A stretch of DNA of 64,000 nucleotides from a virus: positions 40,087 through 104,086 of IMG/VR virus record IMGVR_UViG_3300032299_001203; one strand, 5' to 3'. This document shows positions 12,669-38,165 of the stretch, in pieces. The number at the start of each line of letters is the position of its first letter. Position 1 is the first letter of the stretch. The notes below the pieces were generated by a model that was not told the DNA's origin, made no database searches, and was given only the letters and a program-made list of their open reading frames with translations. The position numbers and the translations under genes were made by a program.

Positions 12669-14870
12669 ATGGCTAATACCGTATCAGTTTTAAACTTTAC
12701 AAATACCTTTGGTGACCTTCTGGCTCAACAAAATATTATTGCAAAAGAATTAAACAATCTTGGTGCCAATAATTATACAAAAGATAGTGGAACATTATTT
12801 GTTAGTGGTATTGGTACAGGACTATCTGTAACAAACACAGCGGCTCTTGGTGCCGCAGTTGTTTCCACAACTTTATCCGTTGGTGGTGATTCAACTTTAC
12901 TTGCAAACGTTTATTTGGATGCTCCTGGTTTTACATTACAAGTTGCAAACAATGCAATTATACACAAACAAATAATTACTGATAATATTACAGCTAACAC
13001 ACTAGTAAGGTCATCAACTCTTAATATTTCAGATGTTGCACGAGTTAACAATTTGACAAGCAACAACGTAGTTTTAACTCCAACATTAAACACCACAGGT
13101 TCTGCTTGGGTTAATAATTTAAGAGCCAATTCTGGTGTATCGGCACCATTCATGATTGCTACAACAAGAGGTATTTTTGAGGACATTACTGCAAATAATC
13201 AAATTACCACAACATTTTTAAATGTAACCACTAATGTCACATCGGACTTAAATGTAACCACCGATGTTCGTGGTAGAGATTTTTTTGGTAGAGTCGGAAC
13301 ATTTGATAGTTTTGTTGCTGGATCAATGACCGTAGCTGGAAATTTTGTAGTTAGTTCACCAACCATTTATTCTTCTAACACCTTTGTGTTAAATGCTAGT
13401 GCTGGTGCAGGTCAAACAAGCACATTAGGTGTTGATCGAGGTATTAGTGGTGCAAATGCTTCTTTTAGATGGAATGAATCATTAAGATATTGGGAAACAC
13501 TTGACGTTCAAAATGGTGAACACTTTAGAGTATTGACCAATATGCATTTAAGTAATTCAACGATGTTGAATAATTCTTTAAATGTGGCAACATCAGCAGC
13601 TGTGTTTGATTTACAAGCACAAGTACGAGCAAATACAAATACATTTACATCAAATGTAAATTTTTTAACAACCACTCTGGCGGCCGCAAATCTTTATTCT
13701 CATACATCATTTGGTCGAGCCAATACATCAGCAAACGTATTTACGGGCACGGACGGTTTTTCTGCCAATGCCACCGACGGAAGAATGTCATTTGATAGTA
13801 ATAATGGTGTTGTAATTTCAGCAACAGGAAATACATTATTTGTAAATACTCCACAAGATTTAACCACCTTATCCAATCCAACATTTAACAGTATTTACAG
13901 TTTAGGTAATCCACTTTCAGTAGAAAATGGTGGTATAGGTGCATCTGAAAAAGTTCAAGGTTTAATTAACTTATTACCATCTACTATTGATGTAGCAAAC
14001 GGATCTATATTGGCCGCTAACGCCAACACAATATATTGGACAACTCGTGGACCATTTTTTGCCAATAACTTAACATTTACACCATTTGGTAGTATTACTC
14101 AGAATACTATTCAATTGGCAGTACAAGACCTCGAAACAAGAAAAGCAACTATTGCTAGTCCGACATTGACAGGAACTCCTGCTGCACCAACTGCAACCAC
14201 CAATACAAATACAACACAAATTGCCACTACTGCTTTTGTTAATACATCAATTGATTCAGTATTAAATTCTACAACCACCAAAAATATTAGTATCAGCGGT
14301 AATGCCGGCACAGTTACAAATGGTGTATATACCAATCAATCGTATTCCGATCCATCATTTATTGCATCTTTGGCTTCAACGAAAGTAACAGGTTCAATAC
14401 CTGGTTCTCAAATTAGTGGTGCCATATCAGGAACAGCCGCAGGCGTAACTGGATTTACAATTAATCAAAGTGTTGGTACCGGTGATAATACAAGATTTAA
14501 TTCTCTTGGTGTTGGCACAGCCGCTTCTGGTACTGCAGGTGAAATTCGAGCAACTAATAACATCACTGCTTATTATTCAGACGACAGATTAAAAACACGT
14601 TTGGGTACCATTGAAAATGCTTTAGATAAATTGATGACTTTAAGTGGTTTTTATCACGAAGCCAATGAAACCGCTCAAAAATTAGGGTATACACCAATAA
14701 GAGAGGTTGGTCTTTCAGCTCAAGAAGTTCAAAGAATTATGCCCGAAGTAGTTGCACCAGCACCAATTGATGACAAATATTTAACTATTCGTTATGAAAG
14801 ATTGATTCCTTTGTTGGTTGAAGCAATAAAAGAATTAAAAGCCGAAGTGGATTTGTTAAAATCCAAATAA
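12669..14870 (+). CDS. Tail fibre/spike with C-terminal intramolecular chaperone (peptidase S74 domain)
   Basis: N-terminal TNTFGD anchor; SPTLTGTPAAPTA..NTTQIATTAFV fibre motif; C-terminal YYSDDRLK...VGLSAQEVQ..PEVV..YERLIPLLVEAIKEL. Confidence 0.85.
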   Translation: MANTVSVLNFTNTFGDLLAQQNIIAKELNNLGANNYTKDSGTLFVSGIGTGLSVTNTAALGAAVVSTTLSVGGDSTLLANVYLDAPGFTLQVANNAIIHKQIITDNITANTLVRSSTLNISDVARVNNLTSNNVVLTPTLNTTGSAWVNNLRANSGVSAPFMIATTRGIFEDITANNQITTTFLNVTTNVTSDLNVTTDVRGRDFFGRVGTFDSFVAGSMTVAGNFVVSSPTIYSSNTFVLNASAGAGQTSTLGVDRGISGANASFRWNESLRYWETLDVQNGEHFRVLTNMHLSNSTMLNNSLNVATSAAVFDLQAQVRANTNTFTSNVNFLTTTLAAANLYSHTSFGRANTSANVFTGTDGFSANATDGRMSFDSNNGVVISATGNTLFVNTPQDLTTLSNPTFNSIYSLGNPLSVENGGIGASEKVQGLINLLPSTIDVANGSILAANANTIYWTTRGPFFANNLTFTPFGSITQNTIQLAVQDLETRKATIASPTLTGTPAAPTATTNTNTTQIATTAFVNTSIDSVLNSTTTKNISISGNAGTVTNGVYTNQSYSDPSFIASLASTKVTGSIPGSQISGAISGTAAGVTGFTINQSVGTGDNTRFNSLGVGTAASGTAGEIRATNNITAYYSDDRLKTRLGTIENALDKLMTLSGFYHEANETAQKLGYTPIREVGLSAQEVQRIMPEVVAPAPIDDKYLTIRYERLIPLLVEAIKELKAEVDLLKSK

Positions 14871-15244: not shown

Positions 15245-15469
15245 ATGCCAGGACAAGTAATAGGCACAGTCAATGTGCAAGTTAATACTCAGAAAGCCAG
15301 TGCGGTCAGGTCGATTACCTATGGTGCCAGAACATTAAAAAGTGCCACAGATTTATCAATGACTGGTGCAGAAGATGGAGAAGTTGTGGTTTATGATGGA
15401 GCTACAAATTCGTTTAAAGTGGCTCCTGTATCTGCCACAGCAACTAGTTTGGATGCCGGAGAGTTCTGA
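15245..15469 (+). CDS. Small fibre-associated protein ending LDAGEF
   Basis: 74 aa; LKSATDL..GAEDGEVVVYDG motif; TGATG overlap with next gene. Confidence 0.65.
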   Translation: MPGQVIGTVNVQVNTQKASAVRSITYGARTLKSATDLSMTGAEDGEVVVYDGATNSFKVAPVSATATSLDAGEF

Positions 15470-15705
15470 TGGCCAATACGACCATACAGATACTTCGTTC
15501 ATATGCAAACACAAGGCCGTCAAATCTAGATGATGGTGAATTGGCGTACTCTTTTGTATCCAATACATTTTTTATTGGTGATAGAAATGGTAAAATAATT
15601 ACGGTTGGTGGTTTAACCACTACGGAAAATGCAGCAAATACAGTAGTTCTTAGGGATGCAAATGGTAATATTAATGTTGCAACCATAGACGGTGGAAATT
15701 TCTAA
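15469..15705 (+). CDS. Small Mtd_N-like fibre adaptor ending IDGGNF
   Basis: IQILRS..RPSNLDDGELAYS..FFIG; ANTVVLRDANG motif; paralogous to N-terminus of next gene. Confidence 0.7.
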   Translation: MANTTIQILRSYANTRPSNLDDGELAYSFVSNTFFIGDRNGKIITVGGLTTTENAANTVVLRDANGNINVATIDGGNF

Positions 15706-15746
15706 ATAGTAGTAGTGGACAACTAGCCTAATAATAAGGAAAAAAA

Positions 15747-17720
15747 ATGGCAAATACAAATATTTTAATCAAACGTTCATCGAGCACAGGACGCCCAAGT
15801 TCGCTCGCTGCTGGTGAATTAGCGTACTCGTATCAATCAAACACATTATTCTTAGGTACTGCCGCAGGTAATGGTGCTATCAACGTTGGTGGTATATACT
15901 ACACCCAAGCCATTGATAATGCCACTGCTGCTGCAACTCCAGATACCATTGTTAAACGAGATGCCACAGGCAACGCTTCGTTTAATTTCATTACTGCCAA
16001 CATTATTGGTACTATTCAAGGTACTGCAAATGCTGCTGTACAATTACAAAACTCTAGAGATTTCGCTATTTCTGGTGGTGACATTACTGCTAGTGCTGTA
16101 GGTTTTAATGGTACAGGTAACGTAACACTAAATGCTTCACTTAATGCTATTCCCGGTTTATCTGCTGGATCATACGGTTCTTCGACTGCAATTCCAGTTG
16201 TTACTGTTGCCGCTAATGGTCGTATTACTTCAATTAGCACATCTTCAATTTCTACTGAGTTTACTTTAAATGGTGATTCTGGTACTACAACCATTTCTGG
16301 TGGTGATACACTTACTCTTACTGGTGGTGCTGGTATTACAAGTAATGTTTCCGGTGATACAGTCACTTTTGATGTAGATAATACAGTTGTTCGTTCAAAT
16401 ACAGCAATCACAAGTCAGACTATTGATGGCAACATTACAATTTCTGGTAACTTAACAGTTCAAGGCTCACACACAACAGTTAACACATCCACATTGAATG
16501 TTGTTGATCCATTAATTATCTTAGCTTCAAATAACACATCTGATGCAGTTGATATTGGTTTTGCTGCTCATTACAATGATGGTTCTACAAACAGACATAC
16601 CGGTTTCTTCCGTGATGCTGGTACAAAAGAATACCACGTATTTGATAACTACACTCCTGAATTGGTTGGTAATAGCATTGATGTTGCTAATGCATCTTTT
16701 AGACATGCAAACGTTAATGCATCAGTAGTTAAAGGTAATTTGATTGCCACAACAGCCGTATCTGATGGTTTTTATGGTAATACAGGCGCTGTATTGAATT
16801 TGTATCCAAATCAAGCATATGCCGCATCAGGTAACCAATATATTGTTGTTGATCCAACTGCACCAAATCATATTCATCTTCGTGCTGGTGGTACAATTGA
16901 TGCTTCTACTGCTGAATTGTATTTGGGTGGTGAACAAACTAATGTTAATGTAAGTGACACTACAAAAGAAGTATACATTCGTGCAAACAATGCTCATGTA
17001 ACAACATTTGCTAACAATGGTACATTAATTGTTTCTAATAAAGTTATTGCTAATGGTCTCAATCTAAACGACCACTCACAAGCTGCATTTGATAAGGCCA
17101 ATTCTTCTGTAACATCTACAACATCATTAACATTAGGTCAGTTAGTTATTGGCACTGGTAGTAATACTGTTGCAACATTGGCAAATTCAACATATGTGTT
17201 AACCGGTTCTTTATCTGCTTCTAAAACAATCACATCACTCACAGTTGATGCTTATGGTCGTGTAACTGCTGCCACTGGTGCTGATATTGCAATCGATACT
17301 TCTGCAATTACTTCTGGCACATTGAGTGTTGAAAGAGGCGGTACAGGTCAATCTTCATTTACAACAGGTGCAATTCTTGTTGGTAATGGTTCAGGTGGTT
17401 TACAGACTCTTGCTAATTCAACATTCACAGCAACGGGTTCTGGTGCTTCGAACAACACAATATCTTCAGTAACCGTTGATTCGTATGGCCGTTTAACAGC
17501 TACAACGTTCTCGGCAATTTCTGGTTTAACTGTTGGTCAAGGTGGTACAGGTCGTTCAACATTTACCACAAACGGTATTATATATGGTAATTCCACAGAC
17601 GGTCAATTGGTAACTGCTGCCGCAGGTACCGCTGATCAGACATGGAGTAATCAAATTCTTACTGTTACGAATGCTGGTGTTCCAGTTTGGACTAGGTCTT
17701 TAGATGGCGGCACATTCTAA
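15747..17720 (+). CDS. Long tail-fibre-like protein (657 aa), Mtd_N-like N-terminus, ends LDGGTF
   Basis: ILIKRSS..RPSSLAAGELAYSY; repeated TVDxYGRxT and GGTGxSxFT fibre motifs; SD AAGGA upstream. Confidence 0.75.
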   Translation: MANTNILIKRSSSTGRPSSLAAGELAYSYQSNTLFLGTAAGNGAINVGGIYYTQAIDNATAAATPDTIVKRDATGNASFNFITANIIGTIQGTANAAVQLQNSRDFAISGGDITASAVGFNGTGNVTLNASLNAIPGLSAGSYGSSTAIPVVTVAANGRITSISTSSISTEFTLNGDSGTTTISGGDTLTLTGGAGITSNVSGDTVTFDVDNTVVRSNTAITSQTIDGNITISGNLTVQGSHTTVNTSTLNVVDPLIILASNNTSDAVDIGFAAHYNDGSTNRHTGFFRDAGTKEYHVFDNYTPELVGNSIDVANASFRHANVNASVVKGNLIATTAVSDGFYGNTGAVLNLYPNQAYAASGNQYIVVDPTAPNHIHLRAGGTIDASTAELYLGGEQTNVNVSDTTKEVYIRANNAHVTTFANNGTLIVSNKVIANGLNLNDHSQAAFDKANSSVTSTTSLTLGQLVIGTGSNTVATLANSTYVLTGSLSASKTITSLTVDAYGRVTAATGADIAIDTSAITSGTLSVERGGTGQSSFTTGAILVGNGSGGLQTLANSTFTATGSGASNNTISSVTVDSYGRLTATTFSAISGLTVGQGGTGRSTFTTNGIIYGNSTDGQLVTAAAGTADQTWSNQILTVTNAGVPVWTRSLDGGTF

Positions 17721-17752
17721 AGTAGTTTTATAATCTATATTATTTTTTATGT

Positions 17753-17770
17753 GGCCACTTTCGGGTGGCC
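17753..17770 (+). promoter_or_regulatory. GC-rich hairpin with UUCG tetraloop upstream of coiled-coil gene
   Basis: GGCCAC-T-TTCG-G-GTGGCC; no U-tract on either strand; TATAAT at 17729-17734 upstream, AGGAG SD downstream. Confidence 0.6.
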
Positions 17771-17790
17771 CAACAATTTAGGAGTTTGAA

Positions 17791-18474
17791 ATGGGAAATG
17801 AAAAGTTTGTTAATTATTATATTGAAAATTTAATTGCCACGATGAATGATTGTTTGATAAGAAACATATCATTACAAGTAAACGAAAGAATTAGTAAAGA
17901 AGCAATTGAAGATCAATCTAAAGCAATTGAAGATTTACAAAATACTATTGAATCTTTAAAAAAAGAAAATCATTTTTTACAAGATAATAGACAGGTTTCT
18001 GACCAAGAAAAATATCAAAATTTAGAAAATAGTATTAAAGAGCATTTAAATACCATTAGAGGTTTAAATGAACGAATTGCTGAAGCCGACAAACTTAAAA
18101 ATGAATATGAAAATGTAAAACATCAGGTTCAACATGTTGATACATTTAGAAATGAATTGATTAAAACTCAAAAAGAATTGGAAGAAGTTAAATCACAAAA
18201 TGTTAGTCAACAAAGTTTGAATGACCAAGTTAATAGACTACAAGCTGAACTCACCAATTCACAAAATATTATCATTCAAAAAAATGGTATTATTGAGAAA
18301 ATTAATATTGATAGAGATAAAACAATTGCTGAACTATCAGAAAAAATTGAATATTTACAATTAACTCCTGCCAAGCGAAAAAAAATTGATGAAGAAAGAG
18401 CCAAAGAAATAGAAGCTCCTGCTTCAGATTTATTTGTTTCCGATACATTAGATAGGGACGGCGGAAGTTTTTAA
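17791..18474 (+). CDS. Charged coiled-coil protein ending DGGSF (227 aa)
   Basis: E/K/Q/N-rich heptad pattern, unlike the T/N/G-rich neighbours; strong SD. Confidence 0.7.
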   Translation: MGNEKFVNYYIENLIATMNDCLIRNISLQVNERISKEAIEDQSKAIEDLQNTIESLKKENHFLQDNRQVSDQEKYQNLENSIKEHLNTIRGLNERIAEADKLKNEYENVKHQVQHVDTFRNELIKTQKELEEVKSQNVSQQSLNDQVNRLQAELTNSQNIIIQKNGIIEKINIDRDKTIAELSEKIEYLQLTPAKRKKIDEERAKEIEAPASDLFVSDTLDRDGGSF

Positions 18475-18478
18475 GTAA

Positions 18479-19141
18479 ATGGCAATTGCAAACACGACTG
18501 TAAAGTTAAAAAATTCAGGTGTAGCAAATAATGTACCATCATCACTATTATTTGGTGAGTTGGCGATCAATTACGCCGATGGAAAATTATTTTATAAAAA
18601 CGCCAACAATTCAATTGTAGCATTTACTTCTGGTGCAAATGCTTCCAATACATCATCATTTGCAACTGTTAATGCAAATTCATCTTTAGTTCTTGCTACA
18701 TCCTCTACAGACACATTAAATTTAGCGGCCGCAAATGGTATTAGTATTACAACTAATACAATCACCAAAACAATTACATTTGGTGATGCAGCCACTCAAC
18801 AATTAGCTCAAGCAGCTTTTGATGCCGCAAATAATGCTTCTAGTGGAGGTGGCGGAGTATTAACTTCTACGGTCAATACTTTTTTAGGTAATGGTTCAAA
18901 TAGATTTTTTAATTTAACGGTAACACCTACAGATATTAATTATACAACTTTAGTAATTGGTGGTGTTTCACAACCTAGAAGTTATTATACGGTTGCTGGT
19001 TCTTTATTAACAACCAGTTCAGCACCAGCAAACAACATTATTGTTGAAGTAACCACGGTAGGCACATCCAATACAACACTATATACCATTAATTACACAA
19101 CAAATAATATTCTTAGTCCATTTTTATTAATGGGCGCTTAA
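18479..19141 (+). CDS. Fibre adaptor, Mtd_N-like N-terminus, ends SPFLLMGA
   Basis: VKLKNSG...PSSLLFGELAINYADGKLFYK; FLGNGSNRFFNL...IGGVSQP..Y small beta domain. Confidence 0.7.
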   Translation: MAIANTTVKLKNSGVANNVPSSLLFGELAINYADGKLFYKNANNSIVAFTSGANASNTSSFATVNANSSLVLATSSTDTLNLAAANGISITTNTITKTITFGDAATQQLAQAAFDAANNASSGGGGVLTSTVNTFLGNGSNRFFNLTVTPTDINYTTLVIGGVSQPRSYYTVAGSLLTTSSAPANNIIVEVTTVGTSNTTLYTINYTTNNILSPFLLMGA

Positions 19142-19151
19142 AGGAAAAAAT

Positions 19152-19481
19152 ATGGGGATAGTTTATAAAGTACTAGGACAATCCAATCCAACGGCAAATA
19201 CTGCTGGAACATTGTATACTGTGCCTGGAGGAACTAGTGCAGTAATTAGTACTGTTACTGTATGTAATCAATCAGCTACACCTGCATGGTTTAATCTTGC
19301 GGTTCAACCAGCTGGTGCACCATTGGCAGCCAAACATTATGTGAATTTCAATACTCCAGTTCCTGGAAATGATACAGTTTCTTTAACACTTGGTATTACT
19401 TTGGGTAATACTGACATCTTATCTTGTAATGCCAATACTAGCACCGTAAGCTTTAATGTATTTGGCAGCGAGATAAGTTAA
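19152..19481 (+). CDS. ~110-aa beta-sandwich adaptor protein
   Basis: YKVLGQSNP...LYTVP..TSAVISTVTVCN...LGITL..TDIL...SFNVFGSEIS. Confidence 0.7.
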   Translation: MGIVYKVLGQSNPTANTAGTLYTVPGGTSAVISTVTVCNQSATPAWFNLAVQPAGAPLAAKHYVNFNTPVPGNDTVSLTLGITLGNTDILSCNANTSTVSFNVFGSEIS

Positions 19482-20761
19482 TGGCAATCACAACAGCAAG
19501 TCAAGCTCAACTAGGACAAGCTACTGCCAAGAATAGTCAAGTAGTTACTACTGCGGTAAAACTGATTAATTCTGGTGGTGGAGCAGCTGCTGGTCCTAAT
19601 ATTACATCTATTATCGTAACAGATAGTGGATATAATAATTTGGATGATACGGCTGCTGCAACAAGTAATTCGTATATTAAAATTCTTGGCACAGGTTTTC
19701 AATCAACTGCCAATGTGTTTCTTAATGGTACGATGGTACTAAAAGCCAATGTTACATTTGTAAGTTCTACTGAATTGCGGGCTGTATTGCCTGTTTCTAA
19801 TACAGGCAACTATGCGGTATCAGTTTATAATTCTAATTCAGCGGGTGCATTGTATTCAAGTTCATTTGTTATTTCTACAATGCCACAATGGCTGACATCA
19901 GCAACTTTAGCTAATGTAACCAGTAATACAGTATTTTCTGAAACATTATCTGCTACTTCCGATTCATCTGTTACATATGCCAACACCACTATATTACCAA
20001 CCGGATTTAATTTATTAGCCAATGGATATTATTTTGGTAATATATCAGTTGGTGCAACCACAACATACTCATTTGATGTTAAAGCTACTGACGCTCAAAA
20101 TCAAGATTCGACCAGAACATTTAGTTTAACAACAATCACAGTAAATCCTTATGGTGATTTTGGATTTTCTTTAGAAGGTGGAACTTTAACAAATATAGGA
20201 TCAGGTTCAAATGCGATGAATAATAATGGAGCATCCGTTTCAACCGCTCAAGCTGCTCAAGGATCCTACTCATTATATTTTAATGGATCCGCTTCAGTTG
20301 ATATAAATTCAACCAATTCTAGTACTTGGTCATTTTTAAGTTCTTCACCATTAGGAACAAATACTTTAGGTACAATTGAATTTTATATTTACCCACAAAC
20401 GGCACCCCCCAGAGGAGTAATGGTAGGGAGTTATCGTTCCTCACAAGAAAAAGGATGGACGATTGACTATGATCAGTTTGGTAATTTATTTTTTGCAAGA
20501 GATTCCAGTGGCCCAGGCACATATGCGGTTGGTTTGTCATTTAATACTTGGACAAAACTAGGATTTGTTTTTAGAACTGATGGTAATCACCAAATAGAAA
20601 TTTATAAAAATGGAACATATCACGGCACGTATAATTATGGTTCTGCCGCCACCTTTAGTGAAGCAAATATGAGAATTGGCCGAAGAGGTGACAACTCTTT
20701 AGGAACAGTTGGTTATATTGACGACTTTAAAATATGGCTAGGTACCAGAGGCCCCTACTAA
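19481..20761 (+). CDS. Putative receptor-binding protein: IPT/TIG + Ig-like + LamG/concanavalin-like domain
   Basis: ILGTGF..VFLNG..VTFVSSTELRAVLP (IPT); PQWLT..LSATSD..YSFDVKATD (Ig-like); SLYFNG..TIEFYIYP..IYKNG..GYIDDFKI (LamG). Confidence 0.75.
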   Translation: MAITTASQAQLGQATAKNSQVVTTAVKLINSGGGAAAGPNITSIIVTDSGYNNLDDTAAATSNSYIKILGTGFQSTANVFLNGTMVLKANVTFVSSTELRAVLPVSNTGNYAVSVYNSNSAGALYSSSFVISTMPQWLTSATLANVTSNTVFSETLSATSDSSVTYANTTILPTGFNLLANGYYFGNISVGATTTYSFDVKATDAQNQDSTRTFSLTTITVNPYGDFGFSLEGGTLTNIGSGSNAMNNNGASVSTAQAAQGSYSLYFNGSASVDINSTNSSTWSFLSSSPLGTNTLGTIEFYIYPQTAPPRGVMVGSYRSSQEKGWTIDYDQFGNLFFARDSSGPGTYAVGLSFNTWTKLGFVFRTDGNHQIEIYKNGTYHGTYNYGSAATFSEANMRIGRRGDNSLGTVGYIDDFKIWLGTRGPY

Positions 20762-20798
20762 TATTAATAAATAATAGAATAAGAATAAAAGTTTATAA

Positions 20799-21968
20799 AT
20801 GACTACCTTAAAAATACAACCGTTAGCCGTAGACCAAACAGGTGACTTCTATTTTAATACAGTCACGGCTAATAATTTACTTGTAAATACGGTCAATGTA
20901 TATGATTCTATTGTTGGTGCCAATGCCAATATTGCTTTACTATTTTCAGTAAACAATTATCAAAATACCATAATAACCAATGTAAACACCTATGCAACCT
21001 CTGCATATGGTCAAGCAAACATTGCTACAACATTGGCTCAAGCGGCTTTCAATTACGCTAATACTATTGTTAGCGATACACAAATTGACCCATTTGCCAG
21101 AGCAAATGCAAATGCGGCTTTGGCCACAGCCAATACAGCATCAGCAAACACCATTTATTTACAAGGTGTTAATACCACACAAAATACCAATATTACAACT
21201 GCTGATGTAAAAGCTCAAGCGGCTTTTGATAAAGCAAATACTGGTGTAACTACTTCATTTGACCAGTATGCCAGAGATACTGCCAATTCAGCACAAGCCA
21301 ATACCATCTACAATCAAGGTGTAGATACAACTCAGAATACTAATATCTCCTTATTACAAGGAGCAATGACTTCAGCCAATGCCAATATAGTACAAATATT
21401 TGGTATTACGTTGGGCCAAAATGCTTTTTCACAAGCAGCTTTTAATACAGCCAATACAGCCTCAGCAAACACAATCTATTTACAAGGCGTTGTTTCAGGC
21501 CAAAATACATTTATTCAAGCGGCTTTTGATAGGGCAAATACCGGTATATCAGATTCCATAGATGCTATTGCTAGAGCCAATGCAAATGCAGCTTATGGTC
21601 AAGCAAATATTGCTACATCGTTGGCTCAATCCGCTTTTGATTATGCCAACACCATTCAAGGTGGAGGCGGTAGTGGTACCTTTACCGGTGGTTTAGTCAC
21701 AGGACCTACAATTTTTGCCAGCACCTTACAAGCCAACGGTGCTGTAAGAATTGCCAACACCAGCGGTAATGTAGTATATACTTTACCAAATTATGATGGT
21801 GTTACTGGTCAGTCCTTAATAACTGATGGTTACGGAAGATTACAATGGACTACTTTGACTGCTATAAATGGTACTGGTGGTGGTACTAGTACCGGTTTTC
21901 CATATGTTGATTTAGGTTTTGTTTGGGAAAATCCGAGTGTACTTCTTGATATGGGTACGTTGACCTAA
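20799..21968 (+). CDS. Coiled-coil fibre shaft protein with AQAAFxxANT repeats
   Basis: Multiple QAAF(D/N)xANT and QGVxTTQNTNI repeats; YTLPNYDG..GQSLITDG.G.L.W motif; ends VDLG..LDMGTLT. Confidence 0.7.
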   Translation: MTTLKIQPLAVDQTGDFYFNTVTANNLLVNTVNVYDSIVGANANIALLFSVNNYQNTIITNVNTYATSAYGQANIATTLAQAAFNYANTIVSDTQIDPFARANANAALATANTASANTIYLQGVNTTQNTNITTADVKAQAAFDKANTGVTTSFDQYARDTANSAQANTIYNQGVDTTQNTNISLLQGAMTSANANIVQIFGITLGQNAFSQAAFNTANTASANTIYLQGVVSGQNTFIQAAFDRANTGISDSIDAIARANANAAYGQANIATSLAQSAFDYANTIQGGGGSGTFTGGLVTGPTIFASTLQANGAVRIANTSGNVVYTLPNYDGVTGQSLITDGYGRLQWTTLTAINGTGGGTSTGFPYVDLGFVWENPSVLLDMGTLT

Positions 21969-21981
21969 TCGGAAATAATAA

Positions 21982-21989
21982 TATAAATA
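21982..21989 (+). promoter_or_regulatory. T4-type late (gp55) promoter TATAAATA
   Basis: Exact consensus in intergenic region 25 nt upstream of 22015 ATG. Confidence 0.75.
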
Positions 21990-22014
21990 TAAGATAACTT
22001 AATAGAGATATTCC

Positions 22015-23793
22015 ATGCCAGCTACACAATTACAATTCAGAAAAGGTAACACCGCCCAGCACTCCACCTTCACCGGTGCGTTTGCCGAGGTTACAGTAGA
22101 CACCGACAAGAAAGTTATTGTTGTTCACGATGCCGTCACTCCTGGTGGTACTCCAATGGCAACCGCAGCGTTTGCTCAAGCTGCTTTCAACAAAGCGAAT
22201 ACAACTGCCACCAATAATAGAATTACAGTAAGTAATACCGCAGGTTATGTTCCGACGGCCAACACATTATTACCTGGTGAATTATTTGGTAATTTATTTG
22301 ATGGTAAATTGTATATGCAGCTTACAACAGGTCGCATTATTGACCTTTCAACAAGAGCTGTAGGTAAAACATTCTATGTTTCGACAACCGGTTCAGATAC
22401 TTTTGATGGAGTAACGCCATCTGGTGCGAAAGCAACTATTCGTGCTGCATTAGCCTTGGCTCAACCAACTGATATTGTTCAAGTATTTGCTGGTACTTAC
22501 ACAGAAATTAATCCTTTAATTCTTCCACAAAACGTACAGTTAGTAGGTGCTGGTGAAAGAGCTTGCATCATTCAGCCTTCCGATCCAACTAAAGATATTA
22601 TTTGGGTAAATAACAATTCTTATGTGACCGGTTTTAAATTTATAAATTATTCTAAATCTGCGATTGCTTTTCCAGATTTAGTCATTGATGCCAATACTAC
22701 GGTAGCTGCAACACAAAATACGTTTACTCTACGATCAGGTGTACCTTACGATAATTTTTATAATAGTATGAGAATTACTATTACTGGTGGTATTGGTGCT
22801 GGACAATTTTCAAACGTGGCATCTTATAATGCCGCAACTAGAGTTTGCACAATGGATGTAAATTGGAATCCTTTTCCAACCAATACATCCACCTATTCAA
22901 TTGGCATTCCTTTGAGAACAACACCTGCAGCCAACACAACAAGATATACAACCAATATTACAGGTAGTCCTTACATTTATAATTGTTCTTCTATTACTTC
23001 AAATGGTACCGGCATTAAAGTTGATGGAGCTTTATCAACAGGAAATAAGAGTATTATTTCTGCACAATTTACACAAGTAAATTCTAATGGCCGAGGCATT
23101 CATATTACCAATGACGGATATTCTCAATTAGTTTCTATTTACGGTATTTTCTGTGACACTGCTTTTTTAGCTGATAATGGTGGTACTGCTTCACTAGGTA
23201 ACTGTAACGTTAACTTTGGTAACAAAGGTCTAGTGGCTAATGGTAAAGGTGCTTTAGCAATGACAGCTCGTTTTGCTAATACATCGGCAGAGGCCTGTAC
23301 CTCTATTTTTCTAAATACAATTAGTTCAAATACCGATTTAGGTATCACCGCCAATGTACCGTATTCTGGTTTAGTAATGAAAATTACTGGAGATGGTGTA
23401 GACAATTATTATTCAGTCGCTGAGGCAACTCCATTGTCTGCAGGAAATACACAAGTAACATTTCAAACTGGATTACCTGTTAGTTGGCCAAGTGAAACAA
23501 CAGTTTCATTTTTTCAACAAAGTCAATTAAGAGCTTCTGGCCAAACATTTGAATTTGTTGGTGCTGGCACCAGTATAAATTCTTTGCCAAAATCAGGCGG
23601 AGTACCAAATGTGGAATCTCAAATTATTACAATTGGTGAAGGCGCAGTGTTTGCTACATCTACCGATCAAGACGGAAACTTTAAGGTATCGGAGTTAGTA
23701 ATTAATCAATCAACATCAACCATTACAGGTAGAACTTTCTCAAAAAGTCTTTTTGCAGAAATGACGCCATATATTCTTGCTCTGGAGACTTAA
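22015..23793 (+). CDS. Tailspike-like protein: Mtd_N-like domain + pectin-lyase-like beta-helix
   Basis: QLQFRKGNTAQHSTFTGAFAEVTVDTDK..VVHD..TPGG (Mtd_N); FYVSTTGSD..G...ATIRAAL..DIVQVFAGTYTE; SPYIYNCSS, FTQVN, GYSQLVS. Confidence 0.75.
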   Translation: MPATQLQFRKGNTAQHSTFTGAFAEVTVDTDKKVIVVHDAVTPGGTPMATAAFAQAAFNKANTTATNNRITVSNTAGYVPTANTLLPGELFGNLFDGKLYMQLTTGRIIDLSTRAVGKTFYVSTTGSDTFDGVTPSGAKATIRAALALAQPTDIVQVFAGTYTEINPLILPQNVQLVGAGERACIIQPSDPTKDIIWVNNNSYVTGFKFINYSKSAIAFPDLVIDANTTVAATQNTFTLRSGVPYDNFYNSMRITITGGIGAGQFSNVASYNAATRVCTMDVNWNPFPTNTSTYSIGIPLRTTPAANTTRYTTNITGSPYIYNCSSITSNGTGIKVDGALSTGNKSIISAQFTQVNSNGRGIHITNDGYSQLVSIYGIFCDTAFLADNGGTASLGNCNVNFGNKGLVANGKGALAMTARFANTSAEACTSIFLNTISSNTDLGITANVPYSGLVMKITGDGVDNYYSVAEATPLSAGNTQVTFQTGLPVSWPSETTVSFFQQSQLRASGQTFEFVGAGTSINSLPKSGGVPNVESQIITIGEGAVFATSTDQDGNFKVSELVINQSTSTITGRTFSKSLFAEMTPYILALET

Positions 23794-23796
23794 AAA

Positions 23797-24135
23797 ATGG
23801 CTACAATAGCATTAAATACATTTAAAACAACTACAGCGAATGTAACAACAGTCCAACAGACAATATATACCGCACCTGCTGGAGTAACCACAGTTATTCT
23901 TTTGGCTCAAGTTTCAAATATAGATACAACCAATTCTGTAACAGTTTCTGCGAATCACGTTAGAGGTTCAAATGTTACTTCAATCATTAGAAACACCACT
24001 ATTCCTATTAGAGATGCCGCCACTTTATTAACAGGTAAATTAATTTTGCAAACAGGAGATTCATTTACTGCAATTGCTGATGCCAATAATAGAGGACAAT
24101 TGTTGTTGTCTTACTTAGAAACAGCTAATCAATAA
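23797..24135 (+). CDS. ~110-aa beta-sandwich adaptor protein (paralog of 19152..19481)
   Basis: ALNTFKT...IYTAPAGVTTVILLAQVSN...GKLILQTGD...LSYLETAN. Confidence 0.7.
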   Translation: MATIALNTFKTTTANVTTVQQTIYTAPAGVTTVILLAQVSNIDTTNSVTVSANHVRGSNVTSIIRNTTIPIRDAATLLTGKLILQTGDSFTAIADANNRGQLLLSYLETANQ

Positions 24136-29380: not shown

Positions 29381-31348
29381 ATGCCAAAAATTAAATCAGT
29401 TCAAGTATCAAATACAAGATATCAATTAATTGAAGATCCAAATCCTAGCTTCAACAGGTTATTTCAAGACGGACAAGCTCTCGATTTAAATACATTGGTT
29501 CCTGCATGGCAAAAACAATTTATGTACAATATTGGTGGCACTCAACAATATGCTGGCCAAAATCATTTTGATGGAACTTTTCAGGATATTCAACCAGCTT
29601 TAACTCGAACCAATTTAGCTACTGGTTTTACAGATAATTTTCCTGTTTTAGATTATGGATTTTTTAGAATTGGATATATGGCTTTACAAAAAGGCACCGT
29701 TTCAACTTACGCTGTAGCTGATGGTTCTGCAGAGAGTGGTGCTACTGCAGGCGGCTCAGGCTCAACGTATTCAAGGTCAACTTTACAAGGCCAATATGAT
29801 ACTTATTGGTGGTCTTTAGATTTTGCAAATTATCCTGTTGTAAAAAGTTGGAAAAGTCCTGTAACAGGATATTGCCACATGATTTATTATCCAAAAGAAA
29901 TTTTAAATAATGACACAACTACGATTGGTTGGGGAACTTGGTTGTCCGATTTAACTCAAGGTATAAACAATACATCAAATAACTCAGCATTATTCATCAA
30001 CACACATAATCTTCAAATGAATATGTTTTGTTGGGAAGATACCAATTTTGGTGTTATGTATGGTATGAGAAAAATTGGTGGCCAATCGCAAAGAGCAGTA
30101 GCTGTTCAAGGATTTAATTTTGGAAATACTTACAGTTTTACAACCAGTATTGTAGCACCAGGAGATCAATCATGCATATTTTTTATGGGTGTTGATAGCT
30201 TTGGATTTACTTGGTGGTATCAACATCAAGATCAACGTGACGATAGTAGAGGATTTATTTACAAAATTGATCCTAGAAATTTAGCTTCAACAACAATGAT
30301 TTCTGCTTTAACATCACAATCTGTTCAAACTACTAGAACTAGTGGAGGATATAAGAGAAATTGGCCAAGTAATATTCGCCGTGATGCCAATAATCGTTAT
30401 GTACTTTATACTTCACATTTTGATAACAATGATTCACAATTAGCTCCAATGAGAATTGTGTGGGATGCAGCAAACGGAACAGTCAATACCGCTAACTGTA
30501 ATATGGTTTTCCCGGTAGGTCAAAATTATCGTAGTTTTGCATCACCAATGGCGATTCCGGTGGTTGATGCCACCGGTTTTAATAACCATACATGGATGAT
30601 GAAGCCACACCAGTTTACTTCGAATGGTAACACATATATTACATACTGGTTGGTTGATCAATTCGCATGGCCATCGGCTTCTTTATCTGGTACATATCAA
30701 ACTTATTATTCGTCTAACGGAAATATTCGTTGGGCAAATACAGCACAAAGAACAATGGTAACTTATCAGATTGCTGCTAACTCTGGTTTTGGAAATCCTC
30801 TTGCAAATAGCGATGCAACATTAATTTACCATAGTAATTACACATTTAGCACAGTTCTTGATATTCCTAAAAACTTTATGCCAATCAATGCCAACAACAC
30901 ATTGATGGCTGTTGTTTCTGGAAGTAAAACAAACTTCTTTGCTTGGAACAATCAAACTGGTTGGGCTTCAGGTGGCGTATACAATACCGAATTCCGTATG
31001 CTTGGTATGGATACAACCAACAGAATTTGGGGTTATGCAATGGATGAAAACAATGGTAGTCTACATGTTCTCACACCAAGTTTATCAGTAAACGTTGTAA
31101 TTCAAATGGCTTCTGTAAGTTATACCTACACAGGAACAACAATTAGTACATCAGCAACAATTAATGCTTATGACTTTACCGGTTCCAGAGTAGCAGCTAA
31201 CGTTACATTGACCATTGATGGTACAACAATGACGTTTGCACAAAATGGATTAAGAACATTAAATATTCAGACAAGTTCTACTATTGATACTACAGTTAAT
31301 TTAAGTATTTTTGGTGGTGGTGTTAATAATATTTACGCCTACGCTTAA
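29381..31348 (+). CDS. Putative receptor-binding protein, paralog A (655 aa)
   Basis: Aromatic-rich beta protein; shares N- and C-terminal domains with 31388..33616. Confidence 0.6.
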   Translation: MPKIKSVQVSNTRYQLIEDPNPSFNRLFQDGQALDLNTLVPAWQKQFMYNIGGTQQYAGQNHFDGTFQDIQPALTRTNLATGFTDNFPVLDYGFFRIGYMALQKGTVSTYAVADGSAESGATAGGSGSTYSRSTLQGQYDTYWWSLDFANYPVVKSWKSPVTGYCHMIYYPKEILNNDTTTIGWGTWLSDLTQGINNTSNNSALFINTHNLQMNMFCWEDTNFGVMYGMRKIGGQSQRAVAVQGFNFGNTYSFTTSIVAPGDQSCIFFMGVDSFGFTWWYQHQDQRDDSRGFIYKIDPRNLASTTMISALTSQSVQTTRTSGGYKRNWPSNIRRDANNRYVLYTSHFDNNDSQLAPMRIVWDAANGTVNTANCNMVFPVGQNYRSFASPMAIPVVDATGFNNHTWMMKPHQFTSNGNTYITYWLVDQFAWPSASLSGTYQTYYSSNGNIRWANTAQRTMVTYQIAANSGFGNPLANSDATLIYHSNYTFSTVLDIPKNFMPINANNTLMAVVSGSKTNFFAWNNQTGWASGGVYNTEFRMLGMDTTNRIWGYAMDENNGSLHVLTPSLSVNVVIQMASVSYTYTGTTISTSATINAYDFTGSRVAANVTLTIDGTTMTFAQNGLRTLNIQTSSTIDTTVNLSIFGGGVNNIYAYA

Positions 31349-31387
31349 TCTAAATAACATTATACTTTAATTTTAGGGAAGTTAAAA

Positions 31388-33616
31388 ATGCCAGAAATCA
31401 GAACAGTTCAATATACAGATAGAAAAATTGCAGTTATTGAGGACCCAAATCCAACATTTAGCCGGATTTTTATTGATACGGTTCAACACGATTTAACAAC
31501 TTTGACTCCATCATGGACTAAAAGCTGGCATTATAACTATCAAGGTATTCAATGGCACGCCACAGGCAATTCATATGCTCAACTTGTTGGTTCTTTTGGT
31601 CCAGGACAAGGAATACAAAGAGTTATTAAATCCAGCACTGGCGTTTCAATGGCCACAATGGAAGCAAACATTTATTTTCCGGTAAGTGATGATGGATTTT
31701 TTAGAGCTGGAATTATGTGTTTGTCTAAAGGAACAATTTCAACTTATGCAGTAGGTGATCAGTCAAACAATTTTGCAGCAAATACCAATGCATCCAATAC
31801 TATTCAAGGTGGTTCAAGAGCTTTCAATAATTTTCAACACGACACTTATCACCAAACAATGGATTTTGCAAATTATCCTATGTTAAAATTAGCAAGAGTT
31901 GCTAATAATACTTTAGTTATCGCAATTCTACCTGGTGACCGAGGCCTCGGTGGCCAAATATCTTCCGGCGGCTCAACAAATCAGTTTGGCCAGAATCTCG
32001 TTTTTAATATAAATGCAAATGATGGTTGGTTTCTTTATGGTTCAGATATAACTGCTGGTATTGGTGCTACATATGGTGTTCCTGGATTGCAATCGTTTAC
32101 TAGTGGCGGCACAAACAACCCTCCACTAGTAACATTAGCACTAAGCCAAGCTGAAGCAATAGCAAATCCAACAACTCGAAATGTGATTGGTGGCCAAAGT
32201 TGGGGATTTGGTAAACTGGGAAGTTCCATTGCATGGGAAGATTCTGGTAATGGTTTCATTTATATGATGAACAACGCAAATCCATCTAAACCTTATGTTA
32301 GTAGAATTACTGGTTATACAACAGTAAATCCTGTTATTAATCCGGTGATTGGTGGTGTTGGAAGTCCATCCAGTTGGGACTCTACCGGTTCAGCCAACAA
32401 CCAACAACGTATTTTCTTTGCTGGTGTAGATAACTTAGGCAATACATTGTGGGTGATAGCTAATGACAGTCCATCCAGAGCTCACTCTGTTGATACTGGT
32501 ATTATAGTTCAACGTTTAAGTTCACAAAATAATTTCTTCTCAAACGTTTCCTTTATTCATACTTCAGCAAATCAAAATACTCATTTTACCAGTTATTCCG
32601 GTGAAAGATTACGCAGATTATCTCCAAGTAACATGCGCAGAGATGCGGCTGACGCCAATCGTTGGGTATTTTATACTCCTCATTATGATTCAGGTACTGC
32701 AACCAATCCAAATAACTTCCCTGGAGGTTCTGCTTTTGGTAACGCAAACTTGATTCCTTTAAGATGGACAATCAATGTCAATACAGGTAATGTACAACCA
32801 TCTTATTGTAACATAGCTTACCTTGGATCAAATTCTCACTGGAATATTGCTGCTCCAATGGTGTTGAATATGAACCAATGGACTCCAGATACAGCAAACA
32901 ATACTTGCCCATGGGGAATGAAGCCTCATCAGTTTGTATCGAATGGTAATACATACATTACTTTCTGGATTACAGACCAGATGGCATTATCTTCAACTGG
33001 TCAAGGTGCTCGGCGTTGGCCTACTCCAAATACCAGAACCATGATTACGTATCGGGCAGGTACAGGTACTAGTGACAACCAATTGACATATCATAGCGCA
33101 TATACATTCTTCACATTGCAAGATATTCCTAAGAATTTTATGCCTTTAAATGCTAATTCGACTCAGATGATAGTTCCACAAACATACAAGACTTCATTCT
33201 TTGTTTGGGAAGATGCTACTGGTTGGAGAGTTGGTTCAGTATACAATTCTGAATTCCGCACATTAGGTATGGATGCAACAAATCGTATTTGGGGTTATGC
33301 AATGGATAAACATAATGGTAGTATTCACATTATTACTCCTACATTACCTGTAAACGTTGCTGTTATTATGTCTGGTACAAACTTTACATATACAGGAACA
33401 ACTATTTCAGCAACTGCTACAGTAAATGCTTATGATTATACTGGAAATAGATTAGCAGCCAATGTACAACTATCAATTGATGGTTCTACAATGTTGTTTG
33501 CTACAAATAGTTCTAGAAACTTAACAGTATCTACAAGCAATACAGCTGATACTGTGGTTCCCGTGAATATTACTGGTGGTGGAATTAATAATATCTATGC
33601 TGCTATAAGCGTATAA
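31388..33616 (+). CDS. Putative receptor-binding protein, paralog B (742 aa)
   Basis: IEDPNP, KGTxSTYAV, DFANYP, MKPHQF.SNGNTYIT.W, DIPKNFMP, EFR.LGMD.TNRIWGYAMD shared with preceding gene. Confidence 0.6.
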   Translation: MPEIRTVQYTDRKIAVIEDPNPTFSRIFIDTVQHDLTTLTPSWTKSWHYNYQGIQWHATGNSYAQLVGSFGPGQGIQRVIKSSTGVSMATMEANIYFPVSDDGFFRAGIMCLSKGTISTYAVGDQSNNFAANTNASNTIQGGSRAFNNFQHDTYHQTMDFANYPMLKLARVANNTLVIAILPGDRGLGGQISSGGSTNQFGQNLVFNINANDGWFLYGSDITAGIGATYGVPGLQSFTSGGTNNPPLVTLALSQAEAIANPTTRNVIGGQSWGFGKLGSSIAWEDSGNGFIYMMNNANPSKPYVSRITGYTTVNPVINPVIGGVGSPSSWDSTGSANNQQRIFFAGVDNLGNTLWVIANDSPSRAHSVDTGIIVQRLSSQNNFFSNVSFIHTSANQNTHFTSYSGERLRRLSPSNMRRDAADANRWVFYTPHYDSGTATNPNNFPGGSAFGNANLIPLRWTINVNTGNVQPSYCNIAYLGSNSHWNIAAPMVLNMNQWTPDTANNTCPWGMKPHQFVSNGNTYITFWITDQMALSSTGQGARRWPTPNTRTMITYRAGTGTSDNQLTYHSAYTFFTLQDIPKNFMPLNANSTQMIVPQTYKTSFFVWEDATGWRVGSVYNSEFRTLGMDATNRIWGYAMDKHNGSIHIITPTLPVNVAVIMSGTNFTYTGTTISATATVNAYDYTGNRLAANVQLSIDGSTMLFATNSSRNLTVSTSNTADTVVPVNITGGGINNIYAAISV

Positions 33617-33629
33617 GACAGGTAACCCG

Positions 33630-35090
33630 ATGACACTCGCTACCGGGTTACCGGTTTCTACCGGCACAGCAGTAGTATCAGCATCTGTTGCAACAGTAGT
33701 ACCCAATACAAATAAGGGTGACCAAACAGATTTTTTGGGTTTGAGAACTATTGAGGTAATGATACAATATCGTATTGGGAATCAAGGAAATTTTATTTCC
33801 AATACGATAGTTTCAGTACAAAAAGTAACGGTACCAACAATAACCAATGTTAATTATGGATTATTAACTGGCGGATTGACCAATGGTTTAAGTTATGTTT
33901 CTGCTGTTGTAATTGCCGACTTGCGGACACCTGTTGTAGTTCAAGCCAATAATTGGGCTTCTTTATCTTCAACTGGAATTGCTTCAAATCCTGTATACAC
34001 ATACGGTTCTAGAAATGATAGCAGCCAACAAGCAACAACTGTAATAACAAATGTTCGTACACCTGCAGCATTTGGATCAAATTTATCTATAACGGCCGTT
34101 GGTTCTCAATCGGCAGTATTACCTTTTACTACAACTGTATCTATAGGTTCACCAAATCCTGTTGTAGGTTTTGGATCAAATTATACATTTAGTTCAAATG
34201 TTGGTTTTAATTATCCTATGGTTCAAGTTATAACAGAGTATTATACAGGAACCAATACTGTAATAAATTTAATTGATGTTCAATCCAGAAATTTTGTAAA
34301 CACATTTACTAGTACAGGAAATACAGAACACAGGCAAATAATGAGTCCTTGTGTTGTGGCTATCAAATCAAACAATGATATTAATTTGTTTATTAATAGA
34401 TATATTACAAATGAAAGACCTGTTACTGTAAGTACAATTACTCGATCAGAAAGCTTTAATCCTTTTAATGCTTATGCAGAGTTAAATCGTAGAACTGTTG
34501 TAACAAATTATTATGGTGGACCAAGTAGTTTAATTCCAAATATTTTACCCTCAATAGATCCAGAAGCCGTAACTAAAACCATAGTTGATATGCCAAACGA
34601 TTTAGGAACAAACAACTATCCTTATCGGCCCTATAATATTAGAAGTCAACTTTCAGCACCTGTAACCATAAATAGTTTTATTCCGGCTGGCAATTTAATA
34701 CCAAGAATAGCAGCTTCTATTCTTCCTATTGCGTCTGTTACTATCAATGATATGGTAGCAGGAGGAACAGCAAAACCATATAATATTCAAAATTCAACGC
34801 AAATTATAACTGCAAACACAAATGCAAGTTTACAAGCCGGACTATTGCAAAGAATTACAAGTGTTAATCCAATTGCTTTACCATTTGAAAATTATTTAAT
34901 TGGTGGTCCAATAAGACCGTTATATACTACCGGCATGCCGTTGAGGCCAGTGCGAATAGACACCACAGCTTTTAGTCCAGTAACCTTTAGATTTAATACA
35001 GGTTTTGCTCAGGTTGTTACTAATTTGTTTACTACTGGTGGTACCGGTGGTATTGGTGGTATTGGTGGAGCTACTGCGTACTGGAGTTAA
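33630..35090 (+). CDS. Hypothetical T/N/V/P-rich virion protein (486 aa)
   Basis: Long ORF, last gene of fibre island, ends GGATAYWS. Confidence 0.55.
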   Translation: MTLATGLPVSTGTAVVSASVATVVPNTNKGDQTDFLGLRTIEVMIQYRIGNQGNFISNTIVSVQKVTVPTITNVNYGLLTGGLTNGLSYVSAVVIADLRTPVVVQANNWASLSSTGIASNPVYTYGSRNDSSQQATTVITNVRTPAAFGSNLSITAVGSQSAVLPFTTTVSIGSPNPVVGFGSNYTFSSNVGFNYPMVQVITEYYTGTNTVINLIDVQSRNFVNTFTSTGNTEHRQIMSPCVVAIKSNNDINLFINRYITNERPVTVSTITRSESFNPFNAYAELNRRTVVTNYYGGPSSLIPNILPSIDPEAVTKTIVDMPNDLGTNNYPYRPYNIRSQLSAPVTINSFIPAGNLIPRIAASILPIASVTINDMVAGGTAKPYNIQNSTQIITANTNASLQAGLLQRITSVNPIALPFENYLIGGPIRPLYTTGMPLRPVRIDTTAFSPVTFRFNTGFAQVVTNLFTTGGTGGIGGIGGATAYWS

Positions 35091-35130
35091 TACCGCTGGT
35101 GAACTAAATACCCTAATATAGGAGATTATT

Positions 35131-35898: not shown

Positions 35899-35899
35899 C

Positions 35900-37883: not shown

Positions 37884-38165
37884 ATGCCACGCACACTACA
37901 ATTTAAACGATACGGTTCAGCGACATTAGCCAATACAACTGGTGCTAATGGTGAGTTAATTATTAATAGCACCAATAAAACTTTGACTGTTCATGACGGT
38001 ATAACTCCTGGTGGATTTGCATTACTTAACACTGCAACAGATAGTAATATTGATTCATTTGCCAGAACAAAAGCTAATGGCGATATTGCAATTGTTCAAT
38101 TAAAAGCTTTGGTGGCCAACTGTGCAACTTATACCGATTTTAAAACCGCAATAGCATCATTATAA
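37884..38165 (+). CDS. Mini Mtd_N-like protein between gp15 and gp16 (93 aa)
   Basis: LQFKRYG..TGANGELIIN..KTLTVHDGITPGG; C-terminal helix similar to end of 3097..4755. Confidence 0.7.
   Translation: MPRTLQFKRYGSATLANTTGANGELIINSTNKTLTVHDGITPGGFALLNTATDSNIDSFARTKANGDIAIVQLKALVANCATYTDFKTAIASL

Follow-up and report, generated by a model that had tools for sequence, protein, structure and literature searches.

What holds together the separately encoded pieces of a phage tail fibre, and can the order of these pieces be read from the genes? The question is raised by a cluster of fibre genes in the IMG/VR virus record IMGVR_UViG_3300032299_001203, of which we analysed a stretch of 64,000 nucleotides (nt) (positions 40,087 to 104,086; hereafter the window), the genome being represented by one 104-kb contig. 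The window, with a G+C content of 35%, comprises the module for tail, baseplate and fibres in a T4-like myovirus. Four consecutive open reading frames (ORFs) of the cluster, named by their first position in the window as 15245, 15469, 15747 and 17791, end in the similar peptides LDAGEF, IDGGNF, LDGGTF and RDGGSF (the tag), and an initial annotation had suggested that this tag plugs into an Mtd_N-like domain present at the start of neighbouring fibre proteins (the N-domain). With a probability of about 0.7, we consider that the cluster encodes one or more multi-segment fibres whose segments are connected by repeated use of a joint of the T4 gp36-gp37 type.

Tags and N-domains of the fibre cluster

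The four ORFs and their C-termini were confirmed, and of all stop-to-stop frames of at least 40 amino acids (aa) in the six reading frames of the window, just these four end in the pattern D[GA]G.[FYW]. Across the 104-kb genome the strict tag was carried by 4 of 100 plus-strand genes and by three of the five genes lying directly upstream of a gene matched by the N-domain profile (hypergeometric p = 2.4e-4). The tagged proteins, which had been described as otherwise unrelated, are not all so: the 78-aa product of 15469 (the 'mini' segment) is paralogous to the beginning of the 657-aa fibre shaft encoded by 15747, of which it is a short version.

Profiles built from related loci recovered the N-domains of 15469 (E 4e-27), of 15747 and of 18479 (two matches, E 2e-23 and 8e-23) along with both copies in 22015, whose internal copy at aa 60-114 (E 2e-13) bears out the duplication noticed earlier. 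The Pfam model Mtd_N (PF18454; gathering threshold 26.3 bits) was matched above its threshold by 22015 (41.4 bits, E 1.3e-10), by 37884 (28.1 bits) and by the collagen-containing gene 34899 of the genome, upstream of the window (49.9 bits), and the starts of 15469, 15747 and 18479 gave no match to it at E <= 0.1. These three domains form one family with hundreds of relatives, with which a profile seeded with true Mtd_N domains merged on iteration, and hhalign compared the two alignments at a probability of 91% (E 1e-6). As the iteration and hhalign link the domains while Pfam matches are lacking, the term 'Mtd_N-like' is apt as a statement of remote homology and not of Pfam membership; the initial label therefore stands by Pfam for 22015 and at the profile-profile level for the other three. 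Among 1.84 billion representative proteins, the N-domain profile detected 19,166 clusters (50% identity) at E <= 0.001, with the domain starting at one of the first five residues of the protein in nearly all of the best 150 matches listed. Pfam and NCBIfam hold no model for the 15469/15747/18479-type domain or the corresponding part of gp37, and a sequence search of the PDB with the profile returned only spurious NHL and beta-propeller matches.

The same elements in T4 and BPP-1

The profile run against T4 gp37 was built solely from metagenomic relatives of the window domains, and it matched residues 5-51 of gp37 with 40.9 bits (E 3e-14); its matches to 15469, 15747 and 18479 had E values of 4e-27 to 2e-23. 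In T4 the N-terminal part of gp37 is where the gp36 trimer binds (PMC3004832). Gene 36 precedes gene 37 at a distance of 8 nt, and the last residues of gp36 are ..VQDFGYY. This end is conserved in the gp36 family: in a list of 120 homologues with 56-95% identity, DFGYY closes 115 sequences and DFGY one, the pattern D[FY]G-x-[FY] fits 118, and the most divergent ones end in IIDFGSY, VLDYGIF or VLDYGEF, nearing D-G-G-x-F. The products of 15245, 15469, 15747 and 17791 had no match to the gp36 family (PF03903) at E <= 0.1, the value for T4 gp36 itself being 1e-52. By sequence comparison, the elements of the joint are common to T4 and the window and the proteins that carry them differ.

The second system in which both elements were recognised is Bordetella phage BPP-1, where Mtd is located at the ends of the tail fibres (PMC2408619). 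The putative fibre gene bbp9, directly upstream of mtd, ends in ..ADLGGIA, which is of the same class as the ..LDMGTLT that precedes 22015. T4 and BPP-1, both studied experimentally, fit the pattern of a tag followed by a domain.

Conserved adjacency of tagged and N-domain genes

The initial annotation had proposed to test whether genes with the tag are followed by N-domain genes more often than chance, and such an adjacency was observed. In a first set of 80 IMG/VR loci (97-41% identity), retrieved through the LtfC-like gene 14901, an anchor independent of the tag, and scored for pairs within 150 nt, an N-domain gene came next after 101 of 142 tagged genes and after 12 of 702 untagged ones, and nearly all exceptions were shafts standing before a tagged coiled-coil gene. 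In a second set of 79 further loci anchored on the N-domain, the strict tag preceded 72 of 99 unique N-domain genes, against 19 in 447 for the other pairs of neighbouring genes; of the 27 N-domain genes without it, most came after variant tags such as SGGTF, IDDF and FDYGTL. Similarly, a tagged ORF was located directly upstream of 16 of 21 N-domain genes on prophage-like contigs from genomes of Alpha- and Gammaproteobacteria, Flavobacteriales, Verrucomicrobia and one cyanobacterium. The same gene order is present in the cultured Prochlorococcus phages P-HM1 and MED4-213, and the rule also holds in Limnohabitans phage DC31, in the cyanosiphoviruses S-CBS2 and S-CRES3 and in a Vibrio podovirus of the Zobellviridae, where a pectin-lyase tailspike comes after two adaptors and a segment of 240 aa that all end in DGG-x-F/Y. 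In all, the order of tag and then domain is kept in about 180 unique gene pairs, which come from myoviruses, siphoviruses, podoviruses and prophage-like contigs of bacteria in several phyla.

The tag is carried by at least ten families with unrelated bodies, including small proteins, a coiled coil and beta-fibres, and a variant of it (..YNGGTA) by a collagen-repeat protein; all of these families are plausible as trimers. The peptide might instead be a self-contained C-terminal element (trimer cap, folding nucleus or chaperone signal) that never touches the next protein, the adjacency then being no more than a conserved order of fibre genes. This explanation, which we regard as unlikely, gains from the synteny of all loci within one lineage and from the low power of the phylogeny-aware test, but it does not account for the lack of a tag on last-in-chain fibres (18479, 22015 and the S74-bearing 12669), nor for its presence on carriers without a common fold, such as coiled-coil, collagen and tiny proteins. 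It is also at odds with the first set of loci, where the N-domain proteins with a tag had a downstream partner gene in 69 cases and lacked it in 13, whereas for the untagged ones these counts were 3 and 36.

Natural fusions at the tag/domain boundary

In four representative proteins an internal N-domain follows right after the first half of a tag, the boundaries (marked here by a slash) being ..HLNG/NTTIIQLKR, ..TIDGED/NTILLKRS, ..FTID/ANTSNKLLLKRSS and ..YIDGNE/PNKIYLKRSS. The first of them belongs to P0121, and the three other internal copies come after IDG or TID. P0121 consists of a shaft of the 15747 type (40% identity over 300 aa, E 5e-47; aa 1-299 of 15747) continued by a domain of the 18479 type (48% identity). 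As the two are fused in P0121, the C-terminus of the shaft and the 18479-type domain should be contiguous in the assembled fibre, following the Rosetta-stone argument. That the fusions sit exactly at the boundary of tag and domain is not expected of a self-contained C-terminal element. A search for more fused forms yielded only one further relative of P0121, and such fusions are rare.

Tag classes and selection on the peptide

To the D-[G/A]-G-x-F tags a second class, D-phi-G-x-phi-x, was added by ..LLDMGTLT of 20799. Among 181 unique pairs of a tag and the following N-domain (the socket), 164 had an A-type socket (gp37-N-like) and 17 an M-type socket (true Mtd_N). A tag ending in F or Y preceded 155 of the 164 A-type sockets and none of the 17 M-type sockets, which come after D-phi-G-x-phi-x or EDLNx; the former class comprised 13 distinct variants before true Mtd_N genes, none of them ending in F or Y. 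The class of the tag follows that of the socket, a co-variation that again goes against a tag acting on its own protein alone. Orthologues of 18479 bear a D-Y-G-type tag only where a true Mtd_N gene comes next.

Orthologues of 15245 end in DAG/DSG/NAG/DEG/DVG-x-F and are always followed by the mini-protein gene, which is kept at 61-88 aa in 22 distinct sequences. The tag before the mini socket was DGG in 0 of 25 cases (DAG 19, DSG 3, NAG 1, DEG 1, DVG 1) and the tag of the mini protein itself was DGG in 14 of 15, so that a self-polymerising extender made of mini proteins is unlikely. The residue 'x' of DGGxF was also considered as a universal code and rejected, since the partners differ between lineages: DGGNF precedes the shaft here and 'IRIKRR'-type fibres elsewhere, and DGGTF precedes the coiled coil here and an 18479-type domain elsewhere. 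The combinatorial host-range apparatus envisaged in the initial annotation is not supported.

Selection on the tag was found to operate at the amino acid level. Its codons vary synonymously at every position (GAT/GAC, GGA/GGT/GGC, TTT/TTC), and 15747 and 17791, starting 41 and 70 nt past the preceding stop, have purine-rich stretches resembling Shine-Dalgarno sequences of their own just upstream; the constraint therefore acts on the peptide and not on DNA or RNA. These observations led us to reject, as very improbable, the proposal that the junction is a nucleic acid signal read as protein by accident, such as a GGAGG of Shine-Dalgarno type contained in the Asp-Gly-Gly codons or a linker through which cassettes are exchanged by recombination. 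Although GAY-GGA-GGN can hold GGAGG at a fitting distance from an overlapping start codon, and many pairs are only 0-5 nt apart, GGA occupies position -4 in just 35 of 114 tags, and the tag is kept across phages with very different G+C content and codon usage.

Structure models and points that weigh against a docked joint

The AlphaFold2 monomer model of the 78-aa mini protein (predicted local distance difference test score, pLDDT, of 70) has six short strands, with the N-domain at pLDDT 73-85 and the tag below 50; disordered in this model, the tag looks like a free peptide. Compared by Foldseek, with the intertwined trimeric beta-prism fold of Mtd_N in mind, the model gave weak matches (E 0.4-2) to the trimerisation domains of collagen XV/XVIII, to HylP (2c3f, 6x3m) and to the A-1(L) tail fibre, all of which are small trimerisation domains or phage fibre N-termini.

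A number of results count against a joint formed by tag and domain. A read-through model of locus L004, in which mini, linker and the start of the shaft were joined in-frame with stop codons read as Gly/Ser, reached a pLDDT of 43.5, which is too low to inform on docking. Neither AlphaFold2 model is informative on this point, and the missing sign of docking also speaks for the self-contained tag. The PDB contains no chain with gp36 or the gp37 N-terminus, and a 2026 T4 preprint presents the fibre part with the gp36-gp37 joint at only ~7-8 A. Tag and next gene start are 0-70 nt apart, with many pairs at 0-5 nt, and because both are linked on the DNA their association can pass on as a block through linkage and conserved synteny. 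Phylogeny-aware independent contrasts numbered three with support, all in the expected direction, with p >= 0.25. Some N-domain genes have no tagged neighbour, namely that of the giant protein of ACG-2014f, those after glycosyltransferase-like genes and 5 of the 21 genome-contig cases. Besides, the LDGGTF tag of 15747 precedes the coiled-coil gene 17791 and not an N-domain gene, an arrangement that also favours the self-contained tag, and the simple tag-then-domain rule needs an extra assumption because of it. ORF 17791 is itself tagged and precedes an N-domain gene, and its conserved N-terminus would, in our interpretation, be the acceptor of the shaft tag. Taken with these points, the proposed connection of segments in series, by a joint between the end of one protein and the N-terminal domain of the next, is probable on indirect grounds, namely the homology to the gp37 N-terminus, the DFGYY end of gp36, BPP-1, the adjacency and the fusions. 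Docking of the pentapeptide alone is not supported, the tag being disordered in the AlphaFold2 monomer.

Proposed architecture of the fibres

Under the reading that we favour, in which the T4-type joint is reused, separately translated and probably trimeric segments would be joined non-covalently end to end, roughly by gene order (Table 1). One half of each joint would be made by the 5-7 residues that close the upstream protein, and the other by the N-terminal domain of ~45-50 aa of the downstream protein, related to Mtd_N and the gp37 N-terminus, with D-[G/A]-G-x-F tags serving gp37-N-like domains and D-phi-G-x-phi-x tags serving true Mtd_N. The first chain would run from an LtfC-like anchor through the 74-aa adaptor, the 78-aa mini, the 657-aa shaft and the 227-aa coiled-coil spacer to the 220-aa end piece, and the second from the 389-aa segment to the 592-aa Mtd_N fibre. 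In kind, the joint would be the one that connects gp36 with gp37 in the long tail fibre of T4, used several times over. The physical contact of tag and domain, the trimeric state and the order of the chains are what we infer.

Table 1. Coordinates of the genes discussed, as positions in the window.
Feature	Coordinates	Strand	Description
LtfC-like protein, 113 aa	14901..15242	+	directly upstream of the first tagged gene; heads the fibre cluster
Root adaptor, 74 aa	15245-15469	+	no N-domain; C-terminal tag ..LDAGEF at 15449-15466
'Mini' segment, 78 aa	15469-15705	+	N-domain 15469-15615, short linker, tag ..IDGGNF at 15685-15702
Fibre shaft, 657 aa	15747-17720	+	N-domain 15747-15896, repeated beta-hairpin units, tag ..LDGGTF at 17700-17717
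Coiled-coil-like segment, 227 aa	17791-18474	+	conserved N-terminus (MGNEKFVNYY..); tag ..RDGGSF at 18454-18471
End piece, 220 aa	18479-19141	+	N-domain of the 'GELAINYADGKLFYK' type at 18485-18634; no C-terminal tag
Fibre segment, 389 aa	20799-21968	+	many AQAAF-x-x-AN repeats; C-terminus ..VDLGFVWENPSVLLDMGTLT; ..LLDMGTLT at 21945-21965
Distal fibre, 592 aa	22015-23793	+	Pfam Mtd_N 22018-22143; internal N-domain copy 22192-22356; beta-helix/tail-fibre body; untagged
Possible extra pair	36781-37872 and 37884-38165	+	gp15-like tail sheath stabiliser, then 93-aa Mtd_N protein; outside the range 15245-23793

The stop codon of 15245 overlaps the ATG of 15469. The C-terminus of the shaft resembles Prochlorococcus phage fibres ending in IDGGTF. 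The database matches of 17791 were only to the coiled-coil parts of SMC/Rad50; in related loci genes of its type always come after a shaft ending in LDGGxF and always before an 18479-type N-domain gene, and in other lineages without such a gene the shaft is followed by the 18479-type gene directly. The coiled-coil protein probably serves as an optional spacer that separates the shaft from the segment after it, and 18479 is probably the end of its chain. The body of 22015 matched tail-fibre PHROGs at E 7e-75.

The product of 14901 matched phrog_1084 (E 6e-25) and phrog_3304 'L-shaped tail fiber protein assembly' (E 2.6e-20), scored 15.4 bits against Pfam LtfC, under the cut-off of 27, and is a candidate for the virion-side anchor (collar) of the fibre chain. 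It also brings in a different geometry, in which all tags dock on one hub of the virion, an LtfC-like collar or baseplate protein, to give a bouquet and not a chain. The position of this gene at the head of the cluster would suit a hub, as would the several near-identical DGGxF tags per genome with an 'x' that is no universal specifier, and LtfC of phage DT57C does bind fibre peptides by beta-augmentation. We nevertheless find a common hub quite unlikely, for in T4 the homologous N-domain itself binds the upstream protein, and a hub leaves unexplained both the fusions and the tag-then-N-domain order in phages without an LtfC-like gene (the Vibrio podovirus, T4 and BPP-1).

An extended form of the serial joint is possible and is put forward tentatively, as we rate it well below even odds. 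Here, mutually exclusive classes of plug and socket would set the assembly order and stop the mini from self-polymerising, internal sockets as in 22015 would be branch points, and the whole would be a portable code in thousands of phage lineages. The classes proposed under this extension would be D-[ASEV]-G-x-F with an 'IQILRSYAN' socket, D-G-G-x-F with 'I-x-I-K-R-S', D-phi-G-x-phi-x with true Mtd_N and EDLNx with 'MPKTLQLRRG'.

Further pairs and neighbouring genes

A possible extra pair of the window comprises 36781 and 37884 (Table 1). The product of the former matched phrog_227 (E 1e-67) with aa 2-212 alone and is prolonged at its C-terminus by ~150 additional aa, the last of which are ..KTTDLQ, and that of the latter has little besides its Mtd_N domain. 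The pair resembles the pairs of EDLNx and MPKTLQLRRG in related loci; it is tentatively placed in the joint family, and it may form a neck-attached stub or whisker with the same kind of joint. Upstream of the window (genome G000 30677-36359; locus L170:1878-7560), ..LIYNGGTA closes a protein of at least 1406 aa with collagen repeats, and one base after its gene begins a 486-aa gene with Pfam Mtd_N and collagen repeats, the two being a candidate joint of two collagen-like fibres.

The module around the cluster contains baseplate wedge genes, a 2081-aa gene at the VrlC position of Prochlorococcus phages and the gp15-like sheath stabiliser, downstream of which the ORFs were read as terminase, sheath, tube and portal from position and N-terminal sequence alone. 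The 733-aa fibre at 12669-14870 carries a C-terminal Peptidase_S74 intramolecular chaperone domain (aa 637-695), and its N-terminus (MANTVSVLNFTNTFGD..) is of another type that related loci have in common; this protein stands for a second class of fibre in the cluster, independent of the tag. The 426-aa protein at 19481-20761, with an IPT/TIG domain and a Laminin_G_3 (concanavalin-like) domain, sits between the two fibre chains and is probably a variable accessory lectin, since it is missing from the closest relative, L003. The genes of ~110 aa at 19152-19481 and 23797-24135 are a weakly related pair, both matching phrog_1276, and each lies directly after a last-in-chain fibre gene (18479 and 22015, respectively), an arrangement that recurs in related loci such as L006, L025 and L028; their products could be gp38-like assembly factors or tip adhesins.

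Two elements were noted between the genes of the cluster. The spacer at 17721-17790, between the shaft gene and the coiled-coil gene, has a G+C-rich inverted repeat (GTGGCCAC..GGGTGGCC) in surrounding A+T-rich DNA, which could be a terminator-like or processing hairpin dividing the cluster into two transcripts. The sequence TATAAATA at 21982-21989, 26 nt 5' of 22015, is an exact T4 late-promoter-like box; the motif occurs 7 times in the whole window, where ~10 are expected, and is thus in no excess over chance.

Comparison with known fibre systems

The serial T4 fibre and its gp36-gp37 joint are textbook knowledge, and to that extent the initial claim that such an apparatus had not been described does not stand. 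The sequence rule itself appears to be undescribed in the literature and family libraries searched: it was found neither in Pfam nor in NCBIfam, and a text search of the literature for the tag motifs gave nothing related to phages. The atomic basis of a T4-type segment joint is not in the PDB, and the pair of tag and domain offers a precise and testable sequence signature for it. If the rule holds, the architecture and assembly order of fibres could be read from genome sequence and many small 'hypothetical' proteins would become fibre adaptors, and laboratory work on phages and their hosts would gain natural break-points, the joints, at which fibre modules could be exchanged.

In podophages A1002 and GP4, examples of branched or chain-like receptor-binding complexes of several proteins, the fibres are built with a rope protein, and docking in A1002 takes place by beta-sheet augmentation (PMC13730344). 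The window resembles them in having several separately encoded fibre proteins that would be assembled through small docking elements. However, their rope protein has repeated docks for fibre dimers; no rope protein of this kind was seen in the window cluster, and the joints proposed here would be co-axial, from trimer to trimer.

In DT57C, LtfC forms a dodecameric collar to which the fibres are attached by beta-strand augmentation, short peptide strands extending the sheets of the collar (PMC10713586). The likeness to T5 and DT57C lies in the LtfC-like gene at the head of the window cluster, and by analogy strand augmentation is a plausible model for the docking of a terminal peptide. In DT57C, however, it is the fibre N-terminus that enters the collar, whereas the peptide of the window is C-terminal and its proposed acceptor is the next fibre segment.

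With BPP-1, whose Mtd stands at the fibre ends, the window shares genuine Mtd_N domains, in 22015 and 37884, and the bbp9 tag class. Unlike BPP-1, it has no diversity-generating retroelement and no C-type-lectin tip, and the domains of 15469, 15747 and 18479 fall below the Pfam threshold.

The distal half-fibre of T4 is similar in that the gp37 N-terminus (MATLKQIQFKRS..GELAINLKD..) is homologous to the window N-domains, the adjacent upstream gene ends in D-x-G-x-aromatic (DFGYY), gene order is assembly order and both partners are trimers, the last two features being predicted for the window. It differs from the window in its carriers, which in the latter are not gp36 homologues and include a 78-aa segment of socket plus tag and a coiled-coil segment, in the tag (DGGxF instead of DFGYY) and in the monomeric knee of gp35 type, which the window lacks. 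Whereas T4 uses the joint once, the window would use it three to five times in a row.

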